A stretch of DNA of 64,000 nt, from NCBI RefSeq assembly GCF_054482595.1, contig NZ_CM137008.1; one strand, given 5' to 3'. A program made the translations under genes and the position numbers. The notes under the pieces are model-generated. The model was not told where the DNA came from. It saw nothing but the letters and a program-made list of their open reading frames with translations, and did not search any database. This document shows positions 1-17,365 of this stretch, piece by piece (within the stretch, counting starts at the first letter, position 1; every line of letters begins with the position of its first letter).

Positions 1-819
1 GACCATCCGAACCCTTTAGCCGCACGCCAGGCTATTTGCGACATATTCCTTAAACGCATCGTTAAAGGGAAAGGGCTGGATGTCATTGTTGATAAAACAG
101 GCGAAGAACCAATGCCGACACCATGGACGGTCTTTGAACTGGTCAAGGCAATCAGTAACGTCGATCACAGCTGGAAAGAGTTCATGCTGATCGACATGGG
201 CGGCGCAACCACCGATGTTTATTCCGCCTGTGCCAACACGCTCTCGCCCGACACCGTTTTACACGGCGTACCGGAACCCTTCGTAAAACGGACGGTGGAA
301 GGCGATCTGGGAATGCGCGTCTCGGCAGTGGTGGTTGGTGAAAGTGCGAAAGAGTTAGTCAATGTGAATTTTGCTCAGCAACCCGCACAGCTGGACGCTT
401 TTTATCATTACCTCCGTCATCTAGTCGCTCATCCCGACTACTTACCCGCAAATGCAGAAGAGAAATATTTCGATACCGTCCTGGCCGGACTGTGTGTGGG
501 TTATGCCACCGAAAGACATGCGGGCACCAAAAAAGAGGTCTGCACCTGCGTCGGCAATGTCGATTTACAGATGGGACGTGACCTGACAACCGTGCGTAAA
601 GTCGTCGGATCCGGCGGATGGCTCTCGCGTGCCAGTCAGTTCGATATGCATCACTGGTTGAAATTCCGCGAGTTAAACGACGACGGTAAACGCATTCTCT
701 TACCGACCGAATTTGAATATTACCGCGATTCCCGGGGGCTATTACCACTGCTGGCAAACGTCGCCAGAGTCGATCCGCTGGCCGCCGCGCGCACCAGTAT
801 TCAATGCTTAACCCTATAA
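1..819 (+). CDS. glmL: Glutamate mutase-associated protein GlmL/MutL (reactivating chaperone-like), 5'-truncated by the window edge
   Basis: Frame 1 is open from nt 1 to the stop at 817-819 (the listed ORF begins at an internal Met at 112). It lies directly upstream of glmE in the conserved glmL-glmE-mal order known from Clostridium glutamate mutase operons. Confidence 0.7.
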   Translation, partial: DHPNPLAARQAICDIFLKRIVKGKGLDVIVDKTGEEPMPTPWTVFELVKAISNVDHSWKEFMLIDMGGATTDVYSACANTLSPDTVLHGVPEPFVKRTVEGDLGMRVSAVVVGESAKELVNVNFAQQPAQLDAFYHYLRHLVAHPDYLPANAEEKYFDTVLAGLCVGYATERHAGTKKEVCTCVGNVDLQMGRDLTTVRKVVGSGGWLSRASQFDMHHWLKFRELNDDGKRILLPTEFEYYRDSRGLLPLLANVARVDPLAAARTSIQCLTL

Positions 820-837
820 CAATTAAGGCTGCAATCA

Positions 838-2283
838 ATGGAACTTCGAAATAAGAAATTAACCCATGACGAATTCATGACCGAGCGGCAACAGGTACTG
901 AAAACCTGGGAAACCGGCAAGGATGTTGAAAACTTTGAAGATGGCGTTAAATACCAACAAAACATTCCTGAGCATAAACGCTTCTCTCATGCCCTGCTGA
1001 AAGCAGACAAGGAAGGTAACACCCTTAGCCAACCGCGCGCAGGTGTGGCGCTGATGGACGAACACATCGAACTACTGAAAACACTGCAAGAAGAGTGCGA
1101 TCTGCTGCCGAGCACTATCGATGCATATACCCGTCTGAATCGGTACGAAGAAGCGGCTGTAGGGATTAAAAAATCCATCGAAGCCGGAACCTCTAAACTG
1201 AACGGTTTACCGGTAGTTAACCACGGCGTCGCAGCTTGCCGTCGCCTCACCGAAACCCTGCAAAAACCGCTACAGATCCGCCACGGCACGCCAGATGCGC
1301 GTCTGCTGGCTGAAATCTCGATGGCCAGTGGCTTTACCAGTTATGAAGGCGGCGGCATTTCCTACAACATTCCGTATGCCAAACGCGTAACGCTGGAAAA
1401 ATCGATCCGCGACTGGCAGTACTGCGACCGTTTAATGGGGATGTATGAAGAACACGGGATCCGCATCAACCGCGAACCGTTTGGCCCACTAACAGGTACG
1501 CTGATCCCGCCGTTTATCTCGCACTCTATCGCGATAATCGAAGGCTTGCTGGCGCTGGAACAGGGTGTGAAATCTATCACCGTTGGTTATGGACAGGTCG
1601 GCAGCCTGACGCAGGATGTTGCGGCGATCCAGTCTCTGCGTGAACTTGCACACGAATATTTTCAGAGCTATGGCTATACCGACTATGAATTAAGTACCGT
1701 GTTTCACCAGTGGATGGGCGGCTTTCCGGAAGACGAATCGAAAGCGTTCGCTATTATCTCATGGGGCGCAGCCGTCGCGGGGATGTCTGGTGCCACCAAA
1801 GTCATCACCAAAAGTCCGCACGAAGCCTGGGGCATCCCGACTGCCGCTGCCAACATTCAGGGGCTGAAAGCCTCCCGCCAGATGCTCAACATGGTCAACG
1901 AGCAGAAATTCCCGCCGTGCCCTGCGGTTGAACTGGAAATTGAACTGATTAAGAGCGAGGTTCGCGCGGTACTGAATAAAGTGTTCGAACTGGGTAATGG
2001 TGATATTGCGCGCGGTACGGTGCTGGCATTTGAAGCGGGCGTACTGGATGTGCCGTTTGCGCCAGCCGCCTGCAACGCGGGCAAAATTCTTCCGGTCCGA
2101 GACAACACCGGCGCGATACGCGTACTGGAAGCCGGAGCCGTTCCATTGCCAAAAGATATTCTCGACCTCCACCACGATTACGTTGCGGAACGCGCACGCT
2201 TTGAAGGACGCCAACCGACATTCCAGATGGTTGTAGATGACATCAATGCTGTATCCCACAGTAAATTAATAGGAAGACCATAA
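838..2283 (+). CDS. glmE: Glutamate mutase E (epsilon, catalytic) subunit, methylaspartate mutase
   Basis: 481 aa; the translation aligns along its length with my recollection of Clostridium GlmE (MEL.NKK..., PRAGVALLDEHIELL, GGGISYN.PYAK, TVFHQWMGGFP.DESKAF, SFQMV.DDI.AV). Stop overlaps the mal start (TAATG). Confidence 0.9.
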   Translation: MELRNKKLTHDEFMTERQQVLKTWETGKDVENFEDGVKYQQNIPEHKRFSHALLKADKEGNTLSQPRAGVALMDEHIELLKTLQEECDLLPSTIDAYTRLNRYEEAAVGIKKSIEAGTSKLNGLPVVNHGVAACRRLTETLQKPLQIRHGTPDARLLAEISMASGFTSYEGGGISYNIPYAKRVTLEKSIRDWQYCDRLMGMYEEHGIRINREPFGPLTGTLIPPFISHSIAIIEGLLALEQGVKSITVGYGQVGSLTQDVAAIQSLRELAHEYFQSYGYTDYELSTVFHQWMGGFPEDESKAFAIISWGAAVAGMSGATKVITKSPHEAWGIPTAAANIQGLKASRQMLNMVNEQKFPPCPAVELEIELIKSEVRAVLNKVFELGNGDIARGTVLAFEAGVLDVPFAPAACNAGKILPVRDNTGAIRVLEAGAVPLPKDILDLHHDYVAERARFEGRQPTFQMVVDDINAVSHSKLIGRP

Positions 2284-3524
2284 TGAAAATAAAACAGGCT
2301 CTGTTCACCGCTGGCTACTCCTCATTCTATTTCGATGACCAGCAGGCGATAAAAAACGGAGCGGGTCATGACGGCTTTTTTTATACTGGGGAGCCGGTAA
2401 CACAGGGGTTTAACACCGTACGTCAGGCCGGGGAGTGCGTATCGGTACAGTTGATTCTGGAAAACGGCGCGGTCGCTGTAGGTGACTGTGCTGCCGTACA
2501 GTATTCTGGGGCAGGTGGTCGCGATCCACTGTTCCTCGCAGAGCACTTTATTCCGTTCCTCAACGACCATATCAAGCCATTACTGGTAGGCCGCGATGTG
2601 GATGCTTTCCTGCCGAATGCCCGTTTCTTCGACAAATTGCGTATTGACGGCAACTTGCTGCATACCGCCGTGCGCTACGGATTATCACAGGCGCTGCTTG
2701 ATGCTACCGCGCTGGCAACCGGCCGTCTGAAAACTGAAGTGGTCTGTGATGAATGGCAGTTGCCACGCGTGGCGGAATCCATTCCATTATTTGGTCAGAG
2801 CGGCGACGATCGATATATCGCCGTCGATAAGATGATCCTTAAAGGCATCGACGTGCTGCCCCATGCGCTGATTAATAACGTCGAAGAGAAGCTGGGCTTT
2901 AAAGGTGAAAAACTGCGCGAATATGTCCGCTGGTTGTCGGATCGCATTCTAAGCAAGCGCACCAGCGCACGCTACCACCCTACCCTGCACATCGATGTAT
3001 ACGGCACTATCGGTCTGATCTTCGATATGGATACGCTTCGCTGTGCGCAATACATCGCCAGCCTGGAAAAAGAAGCGCAAGGCCTGCCGCTCTACATTGA
3101 AGGGCCGGTCGATGCCGGTAACAAGCCCGATCAAATTCGCCTGCTGACCGCGATTACCAAAGAGCTGACGCGCCTCGGTTCCGGCGTGAAAATTGTGGCC
3201 GATGAATGGTGTAACACCTACCAGGATATTGTTGATTTCACTGATGCCGCCAGTTGTCACATGGTGCAAATCAAAACCCCGGATCTGGGCAGTATTCACA
3301 ACATCGTCGATGCGGTTCTTTACTGCAATAGCCACAGCATGGAAGCGTACCAGGGCGGCACCTGCAATGAAACTGATGTCAGTGCCCGCACCTGTGTCCA
3401 CGTCGCCCTTGCCGCTCGCCCCATGCGTATGCTGGTAAAACCAGGGATGGGCTTTGACGAAGGCCTCGATATCGTCTTCAACGAAATGAATCGTACTATC
3501 GCGCTGTTGCAGGCTAAGGATTAA
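2283..3524 (+). CDS. mal: 3-methylaspartate ammonia-lyase (methylaspartase)
   Basis: 413 aa, N-terminus MKIKQALFTAGYSSFYFDDQQAIKNGAGHDGF... matches enterobacterial methylaspartase (Citrobacter-type) as I recall it; enolase-superfamily length; 1-nt overlap with glmE. Confidence 0.9.
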   Translation: MKIKQALFTAGYSSFYFDDQQAIKNGAGHDGFFYTGEPVTQGFNTVRQAGECVSVQLILENGAVAVGDCAAVQYSGAGGRDPLFLAEHFIPFLNDHIKPLLVGRDVDAFLPNARFFDKLRIDGNLLHTAVRYGLSQALLDATALATGRLKTEVVCDEWQLPRVAESIPLFGQSGDDRYIAVDKMILKGIDVLPHALINNVEEKLGFKGEKLREYVRWLSDRILSKRTSARYHPTLHIDVYGTIGLIFDMDTLRCAQYIASLEKEAQGLPLYIEGPVDAGNKPDQIRLLTAITKELTRLGSGVKIVADEWCNTYQDIVDFTDAASCHMVQIKTPDLGSIHNIVDAVLYCNSHSMEAYQGGTCNETDVSARTCVHVALAARPMRMLVKPGMGFDEGLDIVFNEMNRTIALLQAKD

Positions 3525-3527
3525 CAA

Positions 3528-4898
3528 ATGGCTCGTTCTTTTAAAGTCTTATCGCCAACGGCAATCCTCGGGTATGGATTCCCGGAAGAGAGCTTCCGCA
3601 AAGCGATGGCAGAATCGCCCGATCTGATCGCCGTTGATGCAGGCTCTTCCGATCCAGGCCCCCACTACCTCGGGGCAGGCAAACCGTTTACCGATCGCGC
3701 AGGGGTCAAGCGCGATCTGCGCTATATGATCACCGCAGGCGTGCAAAATAATATACCGGTGGTGATCGGAACGGCTGGCGGTTCTGGTGCCGCACCACAC
3801 CTGGAGTGGTGCCGAGAAATAATTCATGAGATTGCCCGGGAAGAGCACCTCTCGTTCTCGATGGCGTTGATCCCGGCAGACGTTGACAAAGCCATCGTCC
3901 ACCAGGCGCTGGATAACGGCAAAATCACGGCGCTGGATTTTGTCCCGCCGTTAACCCACGACGCGATTGACGAAAGTACGTATATCGTCGCGCAAATGGG
4001 CATCGAACCCTTCCAGCGGGCGCTGAAAGAACGCGCGCAAGTGGTGCTGGGCGGGCGCGCTTACGACCCGGCCTGCTTTGCTGCGCTCCCGATCATGCAA
4101 GGCTTTGATGAAGGTCTGGCGCTGCATTGTGGGAAAATCCTTGAATGCGCGGCAATCGCCGCAACGCCCGGCTCAGGCTCTGACTGTGCGATGGGCATCA
4201 TTGATGACAACGGCTTTACGCTGAAGACATTTAATCCGAAGCGTAAATTTACCGAAACGTCAGCAGCTGCACACACACTGTATGAGAAATCCGATCCCTA
4301 CTTCCTGCCAGGACCTGGCGGCGTGTTGAACCTGAAAGGCTGCACATTTAAAGCAGTCAATGACGGCGAAGTCTACGTCAGCGGTTCTAAGCATGAAGAA
4401 ACGCCGTATGCCCTGAAACTGGAAGGTGCACGACGGGTGGGCTTCCGCTGTCTGACCATCGCCGGAACGCGCGACCCGATTATGATCGCCGGGATCGATA
4501 AAATCATCGATGAAGTCAAAACCAGCGTTTCGCGTAACCTGTCGCTCGACGATGACAGCATTCGCATCAATTTCCACCTGTACGGCAAAAACGGGGTGAT
4601 GGGAGACCATGAACCGATGCAAACTGCCGGGCATGAGCTGGGGATTGTCCTTGATGTAGTTGCACCGACCCAGGAAATTGCCAACAGCGTTTGCTCGCTG
4701 GTGCGCTCTACCATGCTGCACTACGGCTATGAAAACCGCATCGCTACCGCAGGTAATCTGGCGTTCCCGTTCTCCCCTTCTGATATCCAGGGCGGGCCGG
4801 TATACGAATTTTCCATATATCACCTGATTGAAGCCAACGACGCTCTGCGTTTTGATTTCCATATTGAACAGGTGACGCCAGAAGGAGTTCAGGCATGA
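3528..4898 (+). CDS. DUF1446 family protein (AtuA-like), function unknown
   Basis: 456 aa; motifs resembling the AtuA/DUF1446 family (GGRAYDPACFAALP..., GKILECAA); starts 4 nt after the mal stop with no promoter space. Family assignment is from memory, not a search. Confidence 0.6.
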   Translation: MARSFKVLSPTAILGYGFPEESFRKAMAESPDLIAVDAGSSDPGPHYLGAGKPFTDRAGVKRDLRYMITAGVQNNIPVVIGTAGGSGAAPHLEWCREIIHEIAREEHLSFSMALIPADVDKAIVHQALDNGKITALDFVPPLTHDAIDESTYIVAQMGIEPFQRALKERAQVVLGGRAYDPACFAALPIMQGFDEGLALHCGKILECAAIAATPGSGSDCAMGIIDDNGFTLKTFNPKRKFTETSAAAHTLYEKSDPYFLPGPGGVLNLKGCTFKAVNDGEVYVSGSKHEETPYALKLEGARRVGFRCLTIAGTRDPIMIAGIDKIIDEVKTSVSRNLSLDDDSIRINFHLYGKNGVMGDHEPMQTAGHELGIVLDVVAPTQEIANSVCSLVRSTMLHYGYENRIATAGNLAFPFSPSDIQGGPVYEFSIYHLIEANDALRFDFHIEQVTPEGVQA

Positions 4899-5212
4899 AA
4901 CAGTCAATTGTCTCACTGGCGCAAGTCATTCGTTCGAAAAATGCCGGACCTTACGAACTGGTTTTAGATATTTTATTTAAAACGAAAGAAAACTATGAGC
5001 GAGTTAAATCATCAGGGCAATTAACCCCAGAACTGATTGCGCGCTTATATCATGTTGAACCTGACTTTATTCATCGTATTGTCTGGTTTGATCCTTCTAA
5101 CGCAGTAAAAATCGTCATGCCACGAGATATTATCTCCGGGAATGTAGGTGACAATGATGTCTATGGTGCACAGCAACATGCACCTTTATTAAATATGAGT
5201 TTCGATTTGTAA
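4895..5212 (+). CDS. DUF4387-like small protein, usual partner of DUF1446/AtuA-like proteins
   Basis: 105 aa; start ATG overlaps the stop of the upstream DUF1446 gene (ATGA), implying translational coupling; motif IRSKNAGPYELVLDI... resembles DUF4387 as recalled. Confidence 0.55.
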   Translation: MKQSIVSLAQVIRSKNAGPYELVLDILFKTKENYERVKSSGQLTPELIARLYHVEPDFIHRIVWFDPSNAVKIVMPRDIISGNVGDNDVYGAQQHAPLLNMSFDL

Positions 5213-5295
5213 AAATCCGAATACTTTTAGCCAACTGACATCCCGTCACTTATTGCAGTTCAACACTTCAGCTATTTGTAAGGTTGTAATAGCAG

Positions 5296-5327
5296 GTAGA
5301 TGCCTGAATCTCTATTCAGGCATCTAC
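5296..5327 (+). terminator. Perfect 14-bp-stem hairpin (gtagatgcctgaat-ctct-attcaggcatctac) followed by a U-rich tract; putative terminator/attenuator
   Basis: Read directly from the sequence between the DUF4387 stop (5212) and the transporter start (5373); arms are exact reverse complements. Confidence 0.5.
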
Positions 5328-5372
5328 TTCTCCTGATTCTGATTTATCGCCGTGCACCTGATGGAGGAAAAA

Positions 5373-6653
5373 ATGAAGACAATAAGTTTAACCACGATGA
5401 TTCTTTTGGCGCTGGTACTTGGAATGATTATCGGCGTAGTGCTCAATAACACTGCTTCACCGGAAACCGCAAAACTCTATGCGCAAGAAATATCGATATT
5501 CACGACGATTTTCTTACGACTGATAAAAATGATTATCGCTCCGTTAGTGGTCTCTACCCTGGTGGTAGGTATTGCTAAAATGGGCGATGCCAAAGCCCTT
5601 GGTCGTATTTTTTCTAAAACACTCTTTTTATTTATTTGCGCCTCATTGCTGTCAATTGCCTTAGGCTTGATAACGGTAAATTTCTTCATGCCAGGTACAG
5701 GAATTAATTTTGTTGCACACGGTGCCGAAACCACCGGAGTGGTCGCGGCAGAACCCTTTACGCTAAAAGTATTTATTTCGCATGCTTTCCCCACCAGCAT
5801 TGTCGATGCCATGGCGCACAATGAAATTTTGCAAATCGTGGTGTTCTCAATTTTCCTCGGCTGTAGCCTGACGGCGATTGGCGAGAAAGGCAGCGCCATC
5901 GTTCACGCCTTAGATTCGCTGGCACATGCCATGTTAAAGCTGACTGGCTACGTCATGCTCTTCGCTCCCCTGACCGTATTCGCTGCTATTTCAGCATTGA
6001 TTGCTGAACGAGGACTGGCAGTTATGGTGAGCGCCGGGATCTTTATGGGTGAATTTTATTTCACCATGTTATTACTTTGGGTGCTGCTTATCGGTCTGGC
6101 CATCGTTTATGTCGGCCCCTGCATCAGACGCCTGACCCGCGCCCTTTCGGAACCCGCCCTGCTGGCATTTACCACATCCAGTTCTGAAGCGGCTTTTCCG
6201 GGAACGCTTGAAAAACTGGAGCAATTTGGCGTTTCCCCCAAAATTGCCAGCTTTGTCTTACCCATTGGCTACTCATTTAATCTCGTTGGATCAATGGCCT
6301 ACTGCTCCTTCGCTACAGTTTTCATCGCCCAGGCCTGCAATATCCATTTATCCATCGGTGAACAAATCACCATGCTGTTGATCCTGATGTTGACCTCGAA
6401 AGGAATGGCTGGCGTACCACGCGCCTCAATGGTGGTTATCGCCGCCACGCTCAACCAGTTCAATATTCCGGAAGCGGGGCTGATCTTGCTGATGGGCGTT
6501 GATCCGTTCCTTGATATGGGGCGTTCCGCGACAAACGTCATGAGCAACGCAATGGGCGCTGCGATGGTGAGTCGGTGGGAAGGCGAACATTTCGGCGAGG
6601 GCTGTCGGGGTAAAGCATTAAAACCCAATGAATCGAACGTTGCTCTGCCCTGA
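5373..6653 (+). CDS. Dicarboxylate/amino acid:cation symporter (DAACS family; GltP/DctA-like), probable glutamate or C4/C5-dicarboxylate uptake
   Basis: Hydrophobic multi-TM translation typical of the GltP/DctA family. I chose ATG 5373 (MKTISL...) because GGAGG at 5363-5367 sits 5 nt upstream; the listed ORF starts at GTG 5352. Confidence 0.75.
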   Translation: MKTISLTTMILLALVLGMIIGVVLNNTASPETAKLYAQEISIFTTIFLRLIKMIIAPLVVSTLVVGIAKMGDAKALGRIFSKTLFLFICASLLSIALGLITVNFFMPGTGINFVAHGAETTGVVAAEPFTLKVFISHAFPTSIVDAMAHNEILQIVVFSIFLGCSLTAIGEKGSAIVHALDSLAHAMLKLTGYVMLFAPLTVFAAISALIAERGLAVMVSAGIFMGEFYFTMLLLWVLLIGLAIVYVGPCIRRLTRALSEPALLAFTTSSSEAAFPGTLEKLEQFGVSPKIASFVLPIGYSFNLVGSMAYCSFATVFIAQACNIHLSIGEQITMLLILMLTSKGMAGVPRASMVVIAATLNQFNIPEAGLILLMGVDPFLDMGRSATNVMSNAMGAAMVSRWEGEHFGEGCRGKALKPNESNVALP

Positions 6654-6760
6654 GGGGGATCTTAAGCAATCAGAAGCCAATGACTACGCATTTTTATAAG
6701 CCGGATCATGAAGTTAGACGGCAATTAAGTAACACTAACGTTTAAGGTGAAAAGTGAAAT

Positions 6761-8413
6761 ATGTCCAAACCATTTATCTGGCAAGAACCGTTTCTACAAA
6801 ATAAAGACGGTACAGAATATACATTAATTAGCGATCAGCATATTACAGTAACGGAATTAGACGGCGAAGAAGTGATAAAAATTGCTCCTGAAGCATTAAC
6901 GCTGCTTGCCCGGCAGGCATTTTATGAAGCCTCTTTTTTCTTACGTTCCGCTCATTTGCAACAGGTCGCCAGCATTCTTAACGATCCGCAGGCCAGTAGT
7001 AATGATAAATACGTTGCGTTGCAGTTATTACGTAATGCTGAAGTCTCAGCAAAAGGGGTATTACCCAACTGTCAGGATACCGGCACCGCAACTATTATTG
7101 CCAGTAAAGGGCAACAGATATGGACCGGAGGTAACGACGCCGAAGCCTTAAGCAAAGGCATTTACACCACTTTTCAGGAAAATAATCTGCGCTTTTCACA
7201 AAATGCGCCGCTGGATATGTATACCGAAGTCAATACGCAAACCAATCTCCCGGCGCAGATTGATATCAGCGCTGTCGCTGGTGATGTGTACCATTTTCTC
7301 TGTGTTAATAAAGGGGGCGGCTCCGCCAATAAAGCCGCGCTTTATCAGGAAACCAAATCCTTATTGCAACCAGAAAAACTGACCGCATTTTTAATCGAAA
7401 AAATGAAATCGCTGGGCACCGCTGCCTGCCCGCCTTACCACATCGCCTTTGTCGTCGGAGGGCTTTCAGCCGATCAAACCTTAAAAGTTGCCAAGCTGGC
7501 CTCAACGAAATATTACGACAATTTGCCCACCAGCGGAAACGAGCAGGGACAAGCATTCCGTGATATTGAGCTGGAAAAAGCGTTGCTCGAGGCCAGTCAG
7601 CAATTTGGTATTGGTGCACAATTTGGGGGGAAATATTTCGCTCATGATATTCGCGTCATTCGTCTGCCGCGTCACGGTGGCTCTTGCCCGATAGCTATGA
7701 CGCTCTCCTGTTCTGCCGATCGCAATATCAAAGCAAAAATTAACAAACACGGTATCTGGCTGGAAAAACTCGAACACAATCCGGGGCAATATATTCCAGC
7801 CTCATTGCGGGAAGAAAATCACGCGCAACATGTACAACTGGATCTAAACCGTCCGTTGCGTGACGTGATGCTGGATCTCGCCAGATTACCGGTAGGTACC
7901 CGCGTGTCGTTAAGTGGTCCCATCGTAGTGGCGCGCGATATCGCCCACGCCAAAATAAAAGCGCGGCTGGATAGCGGCGAATCGATGCCGGAGTACCTGA
8001 AGCATCATATTGTCTATTACGCTGGCCCGGCGAAAACACCGGAGAACATGGCCTGCGGTTCACTGGGTCCAACCACGGGCGGTCGAATGGACGGTTATGT
8101 CGATACCTTCCAGGCAGCTGGCGGCAGTCTGGTGATGTTATCGAAAGGTAACCGCAGCCAGCAGGTCACCGATGCCTGTCACAAACATGGCGGCTTCAAT
8201 CTGGGAAGTATTGGCGGTGCAGCTGCGTTACTGGCGCAAGAATATGTCAAAAGTCTGCGTTGCCTGGAATACCCGGAGCTGGGTATGGAAGCGGTGTGGA
8301 TGATGGAAGTGGAAAATCTGCCCGCATTCATCCTGGTAGATGATAAAGGCAATAATTTCTTTAGTCAGTTTGAGCAGCAACATCGCTGCGCCAGTTGCCC
8401 TGCGGGACATTAA
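6761..8413 (+). CDS. fumD: Class I (Fe-S) fumarate hydratase family protein, likely mesaconase/fumarase FumD
   Basis: 550 aa; N-terminal half with Cys-containing motifs (PNCQDTGTA) and C-terminal half typical of FumA/FumB-type hydratases; sits in the methylaspartate cluster, where mesaconate hydration is the expected next step. Confidence 0.8.
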
Positions 8414-8422
8414 GGAAAATGA

Positions 8423-9025
8423 ATGGAAGCGCGAATTTCAACTGAACGGCATGTGCAGCGCCAACAGAAATTGAAGGAACAGGTCGATACGCGCGTCGCA
8501 GCGGCGATAGAGAAAAAAGGGATCTTGATTGTTTTCACCGGCAACGGCAAAGGGAAATCCACTGCCGCGTTTGGTACTGTGACGCGCGCGGTGGGTCATG
8601 GCAAAACGGTGGGGGTTGCGCAGTACATCAAGGGGCAATGGGACAACGGCGAATACAACCTTCTCCAGCCGCTGGGGGTTGAGTTTCATATAATGGGAAC
8701 CGGTTTTACCTGGGAGACTCAGAACCGGCAAGCGGATATCGACGCGGCGAAAGAGATCTGGTCGGAAAGCAAACGGATGCTGGCTGACAAGCGTTACGAC
8801 TTAGTGGTGCTTGATGAGCTGACCTATATGCTGGCTTACCATTATCTGGATACCGAAGAAGTGATCGCTTCTCTGCAAAACCGCCCGGCACAACAAAGTG
8901 TCATTGTCACCGGACGCGGTTGCCACAGTCAGATATTAAAAATGGCGGATACGGTAAGCGAAATCCGCCCCGTCAAACATGCTTTTGATAACGGCATACA
9001 GGCCCAGCCGGGTATCGACTGGTAA
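8423..9025 (+). CDS. ATP:cob(I)alamin adenosyltransferase (CobA/BtuR family)
   Basis: 200 aa; P-loop region IVFTGNGKGKSTAAFG and overall similarity to BtuR/CobA as recalled; SD AAGGA upstream; 9 nt after the fumD stop. Confidence 0.8.
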   Translation: MEARISTERHVQRQQKLKEQVDTRVAAAIEKKGILIVFTGNGKGKSTAAFGTVTRAVGHGKTVGVAQYIKGQWDNGEYNLLQPLGVEFHIMGTGFTWETQNRQADIDAAKEIWSESKRMLADKRYDLVVLDELTYMLAYHYLDTEEVIASLQNRPAQQSVIVTGRGCHSQILKMADTVSEIRPVKHAFDNGIQAQPGIDW

Positions 9026-9032
9026 TAACTGC

Positions 9033-9051
9033 GCCTGGCATCCCGCCAGGC
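9033..9051. terminator. Short hairpin (gcctgg-N7-ccaggc) between the convergent stops of the adenosyltransferase gene and the LysR gene; possible bidirectional terminator
   Basis: Inverted repeat read from the sequence; the flanking U-tract is weak. Confidence 0.35.
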
Positions 9052-9058
9052 ACAGGTT

Positions 9059-9964
9059 TTACATCTCCTGCGGTACGACCGATTTCGCCAGCATCCATTC
9101 ACGAAATTGCTGCAAGTGCGGTGAGTCAGACTTCTCTTCCTGCCACGTCATAATAAAACGATTACCGGTACGAATAGGCACATCACAGGGGATCACCATA
9201 TCGCCACTATCCAAATCATGTTGAATAGCGAACCGTGGTAACAGCGCCACGCCGAGATTAGAGCGCACGGCGGCAATCAGCATTGAAAGCAAATCGAAAC
9301 GTGGTCCGTTATTGACCAGCGGACTGCTAACGCCAGATAAAGCAAACCACTCTTCCCAGCCAGTAATACGGGTGCTTTGATGCAGAAGCGGTAACTCAGT
9401 AAGCAGTTCTGCCACTGACAGCTTTTGATCGGACATTGCAAGCAAACTGCCGCTGCATACCGGCAAAATCTCCTCATCAAAGAGATATTCTACTTCCGCC
9501 CAGGGCGCGCAAAAATTTTCGCGCATAATGACAGCATCGTACTCCCGATTAAGAAAATCGCCGTTATTAGCTAAAGAATGAATATTAACAATAATATCGG
9601 GATGTAACTTTGTGAATTCATGTAAATTTGGGATCAACCAGTGGGTACTAAAAGTAGGATTAACGGCAAGTTCAATAACCTGAACCGTAGGCTGCCAGGT
9701 CATAATGGTATTGGTATCGCGTTCCAGCTTATTTAATGTTTCTTTTACTATCCCCAGGTAATACTTCCCTGTATCATTAAGAAAAATGCGTTTTTTAGAG
9801 TGTGAAAATAACGGAGTACGTAAAAATTCCTCCAGCGCACTTACTTGTCTGAATACTGCACTTTGGGTTAACGCTAACTCCTCTGCCGCTCTGGTATAAC
9901 TTTCATGACGTGCGACGACCTCAAAAGTCACCAGCAGTTCCGTTTTAGGTATTTTCCCTCGCAT
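9059..9964 (-). CDS. LysR-family transcriptional regulator
   Basis: 301 aa; N-terminal HTH typical of LysR-type regulators (FEVVARHESYTRAAEELALTQSAVFRQVSALEE) and a C-terminal substrate-binding-like domain. Confidence 0.85.
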   Translation of the reverse strand: MRGKIPKTELLVTFEVVARHESYTRAAEELALTQSAVFRQVSALEEFLRTPLFSHSKKRIFLNDTGKYYLGIVKETLNKLERDTNTIMTWQPTVQVIELAVNPTFSTHWLIPNLHEFTKLHPDIIVNIHSLANNGDFLNREYDAVIMRENFCAPWAEVEYLFDEEILPVCSGSLLAMSDQKLSVAELLTELPLLHQSTRITGWEEWFALSGVSSPLVNNGPRFDLLSMLIAAVRSNLGVALLPRFAIQHDLDSGDMVIPCDVPIRTGNRFIMTWQEEKSDSPHLQQFREWMLAKSVVPQEM

Positions 9965-10530
9965 AATGCCGTCCCTTAAAAATAGTTTAAACCATCAAAA
10001 ATACATTACTTATTACGAAGTAATGGTAACCAAAGCAGCAATAAATAATTTATAAGAATCATGATTGACATTTATAAACCAGTAAGGCTGGCGTGACAAA
10101 TATCTTAATCAGATAATAATAATCCGAAAAGCACAGCGCCTTTCGAATTATCCGGAATCACATTAAGTGAAAATTATTAAATTGATATCATTTATCATAT
10201 CTGTGGATATTATGATAAACAATCAACAAAGATTTTATTTTTGATTTATAGCATATCCATCTAAGAATTTTTGCGATGCTGCAATATCCGGGGTAAAGAC
10301 CCGATCCTGGCTGACAAATGGCACGACTTGACGAAAAGCGGTGAACATCGCTTTTGTTGATTTACTTAACGCTACGGTCAAACGCTGGGAAGCCAGTGCA
10401 TCAGGTAACGATTCGAAATTCGCCGTCGTTCTTATTCGTGGCTTGCGGTCGGTCGCGGCAATCCACAGTGGCTGTGGTCATGCAGTCAAGCCTGCAGTCA
10501 GATTTCGACCGTGGTTAACCGTTTAAGACA

Positions 10531-10557
10531 TAAAAAAGGCCATCATACGATGGCCAA
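10531..10557 (-). terminator. Intrinsic terminator of the sdh-suc operon
   Basis: GC hairpin followed by a U-run on the minus strand (A-run 10532-10537 on plus). Confidence 0.7.
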
Positions 10558-10630
10558 CCATGTCGAAACCGACAGCCCTTCGCCATTCCTGTAGAGGGAA
10601 GCGGCGAGGGCTATTTCTTATTACAGATAT
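10531..10630 (-). ncRNA. sdhX: sucD 3'UTR-derived sRNA (SdhX/RybD-like), ending at the sucD intrinsic terminator
   Basis: About 100 nt between the sucD stop (10631-10633) and a terminator hairpin (ggccatc-atacg-atggcc, 10538-10556) with a U-run on the minus strand. That SdhX is made from the sucD 3'UTR is established knowledge; identity was not verified by alignment. Confidence 0.5.
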
Positions 10631-11500
10631 TTATTTCAGAACAGTTTTCAGTGCTTCACCGATATCCGCCAGGCTGCGAACGGTTTTCACGCCTGCGGCT
10701 TCCAGAGCAGCGAATTTCTCATCCGCAGTCCCTTTCCCACCGGCAATGATGGCACCCGCGTGGCCCATACGTTTGCCTTTCGGCGCAGTCACACCAGCGA
10801 TGTAACCCACAACTGGCTTGGTAACGTGCTCTTTGATGTACGCAGCTGCTTCTTCTTCAGCGCTACCGCCGATCTCACCGATCATCACGATCGCTTCGGT
10901 CTGCGGATCTTTTTCGAACATTTCGAGAATGTCGATAAAGTTAGAGCCAGGGATCGGGTCACCGCCGATACCGACACAGGTCGACTGACCGAAACCGTAA
11001 TCCGTGGTCTGTTTAACCGCTTCATAGGTCAGTGTACCGGAACGGGAAACGATACCCACTTTACCCGGTTTGTGAATGTGACCCGGTTGGATACCAATTT
11101 TGCATTCACCCGGGGTGATAACGCCTGGGCAGTTCGGGCCGATCATACGAACGCCGGCTTCATCCAGTTTCACTTTCACAGTCAGCATATCCAGCGTCGG
11201 GATGCCTTCAGTGATGGTGATAATCAGTTTGATGCCTGCGTCGATGGCTTCCAGAATGGAGTCTTTGCAGAACGGTGCTGGTACGTAGATAACAGAAGCG
11301 GTAGCGCCAGTAGCAGCAACAGCTTCACGCACTGTGTTGAACACCGGCAGGCCGAGGTGGGTAGTACCGCCTTTACCTGGGGTTACGCCGCCAACCATTT
11401 TAGTGCCGTATGCAATGGCCTGTTCTGAGTGGAAAGTCCCCTGGCTACCGGTAAAGCCCTGGCAGATAACCTTGGTGTTTTTATCAATTAAAATGGACAT
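10631..11500 (-). CDS. sucD: Succinyl-CoA synthetase alpha subunit
   Basis: 289 aa, translation matches E. coli SucD as recalled ([45 protein letters not shown]...). Confidence 0.97.
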
Positions 11501-12750: not shown

Positions 12751-12990
12751 CGTAGGCCTGATAAGACGCGCAAGCGTCGCATCTGGCATCGCTTGTCGGA
12801 TGCGGCGCAAGCGCCTTATCCGACCTACATCGGTGCTCCCCGTAGGCCTGATAAGACGTGTAAGCGTCGCATCAGGCATCGCTTGTCGGATGCGACGCGA
12901 GCGCCTTATCCGACCTACATCGGTGCTTCCCGTAGGCCTGATAAGACGCGTTAAGCGTCGCATCAGGCTTCAATTGCCGGAGAAGGCGAT
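12751..12990. repeat. Tandem ~90-bp BIME/REP array (about 2.5 copies) in the sucB-sucC spacer
   Basis: Unit starts at 12751, 12841 and 12931 (cgtaggcctgataagacg...); each unit holds REP-type palindromes (gcctgataagacg / cggatgcggcg...cgccttatccg). Confidence 0.85.
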
Positions 12991-17239: not shown

Positions 17240-17365
17240 GTTACGCCTGATGCGCTGCGCTTATCAGGCCTACGGGTAATGACTTGTAGGCCGGATAAGG
17301 CGTTCACGCCGCATCCGGCACTGGTTGCCTGATGCGACGCTTGCGCGTCTTATCAGGCCTACGGT
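17240..17365. repeat. REP/BIME palindromic elements in the sdhB-sucA intergenic region (which also carries the internal suc promoter)
   Basis: Several gcctgatgcg...cttatcaggcctac and ggccggataaggcgttcacgccgcatccggc palindromes. Confidence 0.8.

Follow-up and report, generated by a model that had tools for sequence, protein, structure and literature searches.

The window is a 64,000-nt stretch of contig NZ_CM137008.1 (assembly GCF_054482595.1), and the element considered here lies on its minus strand at the end of the succinyl-CoA synthetase genes (Table 1). The record of strain XH990, which is collinear with window positions 1-22700 and 99.98% identical to them, labels the last of these ORFs sucD (WP_000025458.1, succinate--CoA ligase subunit alpha); its annotation places sucC, sucB (odhB), sucA, and sdhCDAB upstream, with sucC, sucB, and sucA on the sucD strand. 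sucD is the last gene of the sdhCDAB-sucABCD operon, and the operon mRNA is the parent of the small RNA (sRNA) described below. The sRNA gene, sdhX, starts right after the sucD stop codon (TAA) on the same strand, where the minus-strand bases read AUAUCUGUAAUAAGAAAUAGCCCUCGCCGCUUCCCUCUACAGGAAUGGCGAAGGGCUGUCGGUUUCGACAUGGUUGGCCAUCGUAUGAUGGCCUUUUUUAU, and the 3' UTR runs from position 10630 down to approximately 10530. Other RNA elements were also found in the window by Rfam. REP/BIME-type palindromic repeats of the naRNA4 (CssrE) family lie at 12755-12825 and 12845-12915, both on the minus strand in the sucB-sucC spacer, and a further naRNA4 match at 17289-17359 on the plus strand falls in the sdhB-sucA spacer by collinearity with XH990; the sRNA ES036 (CssrF) is matched over its full length at 34740-34782 on the minus strand (73.4 bits; gathering score, 37.6).

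Table 1. Features of the sdhX locus and its flanks, in window coordinates
Feature	Position	Strand	Basis or remark
FumD, class I fumarase	6761-8413		
cobO	8423-9025		
LysR-family regulator	9059-9964	-	
Decayed 3' end of convergent rtcB-family gene	10432..10529	+	tblastn, and blastn against the NZ_OZ501598.1 gene
sdhX, full-length 101-nt form (sucD 3' UTR)	10530..10630	-	Match to K-12 b4764
Putative short form, like Salmonella 38-nt SdhX2 (seed and terminator)	10532..10569	-	Last 38 nt to end of U-tract
Rho-independent terminator	10532..10555	-	Terminator scan and fold; equal to K-12; presumed Hfq-binding 3' module
Conserved seed UUCGACAUGGU	10557..10567 (core CGACAU, 10565..10560)	-	Exact match to seed in PMC6393394
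Small 4-bp hairpin	RNA positions 58-69	-	Predicted fold
G62	10569	-	G in window; base needed for E. coli fdoG repression
5' G+C-rich stem-loop	10574..10612 (RNA positions 19-57)	-	MFE structure; includes E. coli-specific region pairing with katG Shine-Dalgarno sequence
C34	10597	-	In 5' stem-loop; katG-pairing region
sucD, succinyl-CoA synthetase alpha subunit	10631..11500	-	289-aa ORF

The curated K-12 ncRNA sdhX (b4764, NC_000913.3 765050-765150), annotated in MG1655 as "small regulatory RNA SdhX" directly after sucD, aligns with window positions 10630..10530 of the minus strand at 100 of 101 positions. The sole difference, A for G at SdhX position 100, lies just past the terminator U-tract and is very unlikely to affect function; the seed, C34, G62, the stem-loops, the terminator hairpin, and the U6 tail are all as in K-12. 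The first-pass annotation had described an SdhX-like sRNA at 10531-10630, a span that agrees to within 1 nt with the 101-nt K-12 annotation, and had proposed alignment with K-12 sdhX as the check, with an absence of similarity counting against the assignment; the alignment finds seed and terminator identical, and the "SdhX-like" RNA is in fact SdhX itself. A search of the whole window with Rfam 15 at gathering thresholds matched no family to sdhX, and at E <= 10 over positions 10300-10800 there were chance-level terminator matches only (isrD, 17.3 bits; gathering score, 37); since no family of the library reached threshold here, this result carries no weight against the identification. The element is thus almost certainly the gene that in E. 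coli encodes the Hfq-dependent sRNA SdhX (formerly RybD), which derives from the sdhCDAB-sucABCD mRNA at its 3' end, and as such is an already known feature in its K-12 form, real but ordinary.

The terminator of sdhX consists of a 7-bp hairpin with five G-C pairs (GGCCAUC-GUAU-GAUGGCC; RNA positions 76-93, window positions 10555..10538) and a U6 tail directly after it at 10537..10532. A consensus terminator scan, run separately from the fold, reports the same site, with GGCCATCGTATGATGGCC at 10555..10538 of the minus strand and then TTTTTT. A bidirectional terminator that would also serve the convergent rtcB-family gene is unsupported, as the hairpin read on the plus strand is followed by AACCATG and has no T-run. 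The scan also gave a terminator-like hairpin, AAAAGCGGTGAACATCGCTTTT followed by GTTGATTT, at 10334-10355 on the plus strand, where a non-coding spacer separates the LysR-family gene from the rtcB remnant; terminator-like sites are no more numerous in this region than chance predicts.

The conserved primary target of SdhX is ackA, and its seed, UUCGACAUGGU with the core CGACAU, immediately precedes the terminator; a 38-nt 3' form containing only seed and terminator is sufficient for repression (Miyakoshi et al., PMC6393394). The seed in the window ends one base ahead of the terminator hairpin. SdhX positions 64-73 (UUCGACAUGG) and K-12 ackA positions -2..+8 (CCAUGUCGAG) form 10 contiguous pairs, one of which is G-U, and 5415 of 5424 E. 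coli genomes carry the 70-nt ackA start region at 99% identity or above. Two further targets have been described for E. coli SdhX: repression of fdoG requires G62 and repression of katG occurs via a non-conserved region upstream of the seed, the two pairings having been tested with C34G and G62C plus compensatory mutations (PMC6393394). Because ackA, fdoG, and katG lie outside the window, their target sites were checked in K-12 only, together with conservation among E. coli genomes. Duplex prediction between SdhX and ackA positions -40..+30 gave over-long duplexes that unfold the terminator (-26 to -33 kcal/mol); it was discarded because it ignores intramolecular structure, and the 10-bp seed pairing was instead read straight from the sequences.

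Island genes were considered as local targets of SdhX and rejected, since the number of seed complements is at chance level: allowing up to one mismatch, CCATGTCGAA occurs at eight sites window-wide (4.95 +/- 2.2 expected), and the sole exact match is the sdhX seed itself, on the opposite strand. The two non-seed sites that were compared with ORFs are at 190-199, which is antisense to glmL and not at a gene start, and at 61485-61494, which lies inside a 554-aa ORF (60358..62022, minus strand) on the opposite strand and is likewise not at a gene start; the latter site is just past an ORF at 60916..61482 (plus strand) and 85 nt into another at 61400..61696 (plus strand). The island gene for FumD (start at 6761) was also rejected as a target; it begins with AUGUCC, not AUGUCG, and offers only five pairs with the core seed.

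A rival reading is that the region functions only as the operon terminator and 3' UTR, protecting the sucD mRNA and yielding no trans-acting RNA in this strain background. The scan leaves no doubt that a terminator is there, and removing the 3' UTR in its entirety lowers SucD protein, from which it follows that the region has a cis role (PMC6393394). However, the sequence is that of the K-12 allele, for which trans control of ackA, fdoG, and katG was shown by compensatory mutations, conservation covers the seed as well as the ackA site, and cis and trans roles are compatible with each other; a purely cis-acting element is therefore very improbable.

SdhX is cut by RNase E from the approximately 10-kb sdhCDAB-sucABCD mRNA and depends on Hfq; it is reported to have no transcription start site or conserved promoter of its own and to be lost in an rne-ts mutant (PMC6393394). 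By the same route, in the strain studied here, transcription from the sdh/suc promoters would run through sucD and stop at the hairpin and U6 tail (10555..10532); RNase E would cleave the mRNA once close to the stop codon of sucD and a second time upstream of the seed, freeing forms of approximately 100 nt and 38 nt that both carry the terminator and whose U-rich 3' end would be bound by Hfq. The single-stranded seed (10567..10557) would then pair with the ackA start-codon region and repress acetate kinase synthesis, thereby tying acetate metabolism to expression of the TCA cycle; in E. coli, G62 would add repression of fdoG and the upstream C-rich stretch around C34 repression of katG. The short form is placed in the window by analogy with published SdhX (PMC6393394), and its putative 5' end falls at GG/UUU, a motif resembling an RNase E site.

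An alternative origin for the sRNA, by transcription from a promoter of its own within sucD (in the manner of MicL within cutC) and not by processing, is also very improbable. A weak σ70-like match (9 of 12 positions) does lie inside sucD on the minus strand at 11076..11049, but approximately 420 nt separate it from the 5' end of the sRNA downstream, such matches are no commoner in the region than in shuffled sequence (four found in and after sucD; 2.3 +/- 1.6 expected), and the published evidence on start sites and on the rne-ts mutant, given above, also speaks against it. This absence of any promoter excess fits biogenesis of SdhX by processing.

The predicted fold of the 3' UTR has a minimum free energy (MFE) of -41.3 kcal/mol, compared with -25.0 +/- 3.5 kcal/mol in 200 dinucleotide shuffles (z = -4.67; none of the 200 as good), and K-12 sdhX has a predicted structure and energy equal to those of the window copy. 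The description of the region in the first-pass annotation as two GC-rich stem-loops that end in a U-rich terminator is accurate, and the structure, on which fold and terminator scan agree, is beyond chance. The idea that the hairpins are chance structure or a REP-like repeat at an island junction is already refuted: REP/BIME-type elements do occur elsewhere in the same operon, but the fold outperforms every shuffle, no Rfam repeat family matches at sdhX, and carrying genomes have a median of one copy (highest, two), found directly after sucD in all records whose annotation was read.

Conservation of SdhX at the species level has been published (Figure 1A of PMC6393394). Of the 5426 complete E. 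coli genomes, 5424 carry 80% or more of the 101-nt element; the matching records comprise 4225 at 99% identity or above and 1194 at 95-99%. The sdhX query also had two matches on plasmids, and one of the 5426 genomes was without any match. In RefSeq/PGAP records no feature is annotated under the sdhX match, and among the records read an ncRNA feature is present in K-12 only.

Variation within the element was followed in an alignment of seven genomes with four different downstream contents, a small sample and not a census. The seed (positions 64-74) and the terminator stem are invariant in all seven copies; the variable positions are 36 (stem 1 loop), 45 and 46 (stem 1), 62 (G to A in one strain), 83 (terminator loop), and 100. 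The strain with the natural G62A substitution, at the base required for fdoG repression, is 100416 (NZ_CM128593.1; position 212 of the extracted locus L010 corresponds to SdhX position 62). A second natural variant was seen in strain FDAARGOS_944 (NZ_CP065613.1; locus L006, 6143-6912), in which an IS1 element interrupts the SdhX seed at the site corresponding to window positions 10558-10566, with TCGACATGG as its 9-bp target duplication; in this one strain the insertion thus cuts the sdh-suc transcript off from both seed and terminator. Such natural variants may possibly shift the SdhX target set between E. coli lineages.

Just past the terminator the window and K-12 diverge. Homology to K-12 ends 0-3 nt past the U-tract, and the K-12 sequence reaches the mngR stop codon, reverse-complemented, 2 nt after sdhX. 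Genomes of the window type lack mngR-mngA-mngB and carry in their place the FumD/methylaspartate (glutamate fermentation) cluster, which is known from O157:H7 and other enterobacteria (PMC4682846). In this type the interval between sdhX and cydA contains genes for a LysR-family regulator, CobO, a class I fumarate hydratase, a dicarboxylate symporter, a DUF4387 protein, an AtuA-family protein, methylaspartate ammonia-lyase, and glutamate (methylaspartate) mutase E, L, and S, together with two hypothetical genes; window positions 1-9964 hold the methylaspartate cluster including the glutamate mutase genes glmL and glmE, with glmS just outside the window. Of the 5426 genomes, 835 have the 564 nt directly past the terminator; O157:H7, O55:H7, and O145 are among them.

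Between the sdhX terminator and this cluster, and not part of the sRNA, is the remnant of an rtcB-family gene. Compared with the intact gene of NZ_OZ501598.1 it retains amino acids 375-393 and 451-462 (tblastn) and has suffered an internal deletion of approximately 175 nt (blastn) and a 1-nt frameshift. The TAA stop codon of the intact gene overlaps U98-A100 of the SdhX tail, and the window and the rtcB/hut type of genome have approximately 40 further bases in common past the U-tract. The first-pass annotation had the island begin immediately beyond the terminator. That holds in that variable DNA starts there, but the first approximately 100 nt are the rtcB remnant and not the cluster proper. 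As the variable DNA begins just past the terminator, downstream content does not affect either the sRNA or the terminator, and the earlier statement that acquisition appears to have preserved the sRNA is a reasonable one, with the K-12 mngR-mngAB genes as one of at least four alternative contents.

These alternatives between sdhX and cydA are mngRAB; the FumD/methylaspartate cluster; an rtcB-family gene with hut genes; and a TPR protein followed directly by cydA. The four types part from one another right after GGCCTTTTTT, within 0-3 nt of the U-tract. The position of the four junctions, together with the rtcB remnant, may mean that the breakpoint is set by selection acting on sRNA and terminator, and the persistence of the remnant in the window type that an arrangement with rtcB was displaced by the FumD cluster. 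It may be, although this is tentative and less likely than not, that the sdhX terminator is the fixed left edge of a hot spot of recombination and replacement extending to cydA.

The window copy corresponds to SdhX (RybD) of K-12 in its position after sucD, 101-nt length, seed, C34 and G62, stem-loops, and terminator, and differs in what follows: mngR in K-12, and in the window the rtcB-family remnant and then the LysR/FumD/methylaspartate cluster. Salmonella SdhX1 (87 nt) and SdhX2 (38 nt) have the same origin at the sucD 3' end, RNase E processing, seed core (CGACAU), terminator-based Hfq module, and founding target, ackA (PMC6393394). In contrast, conservation does not extend to the part upstream of the seed; in Salmonella the katG-pairing stretch is lacking and the position of G62 is occupied by U; consequently katG and fdoG are not regulated by the Salmonella sRNA, which acts on fumB and yfbV instead (PMC6393394), and the window carries the E. 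coli version. CpxQ (from cpxP) and NarS (from narK) are likewise Hfq-dependent sRNAs derived from 3' UTRs, in which the mRNA terminator forms the sRNA 3' end, release is by RNase E, and the seed is just upstream of the terminator (PMC6393394; PMC7038943); they differ from SdhX in parent genes, seeds, and targets and are analogues, not homologues.

SdhX is an experimentally characterized sRNA that couples expression of the TCA-cycle operon to acetate metabolism, and the present copy adds little to what is known of it. Since sdhX is unmarked in the non-K-12 RefSeq records read and has no Rfam match, readers and pipelines that work from sequence alone will keep "rediscovering" it. Its terminator marks a sharp, reused edge of a variable region, and because SdhX itself is unchanged in strains with the FumD/methylaspartate cluster, O157:H7 among them, regulation by SdhX can, on the strength of sequence identity, be assumed to operate there.
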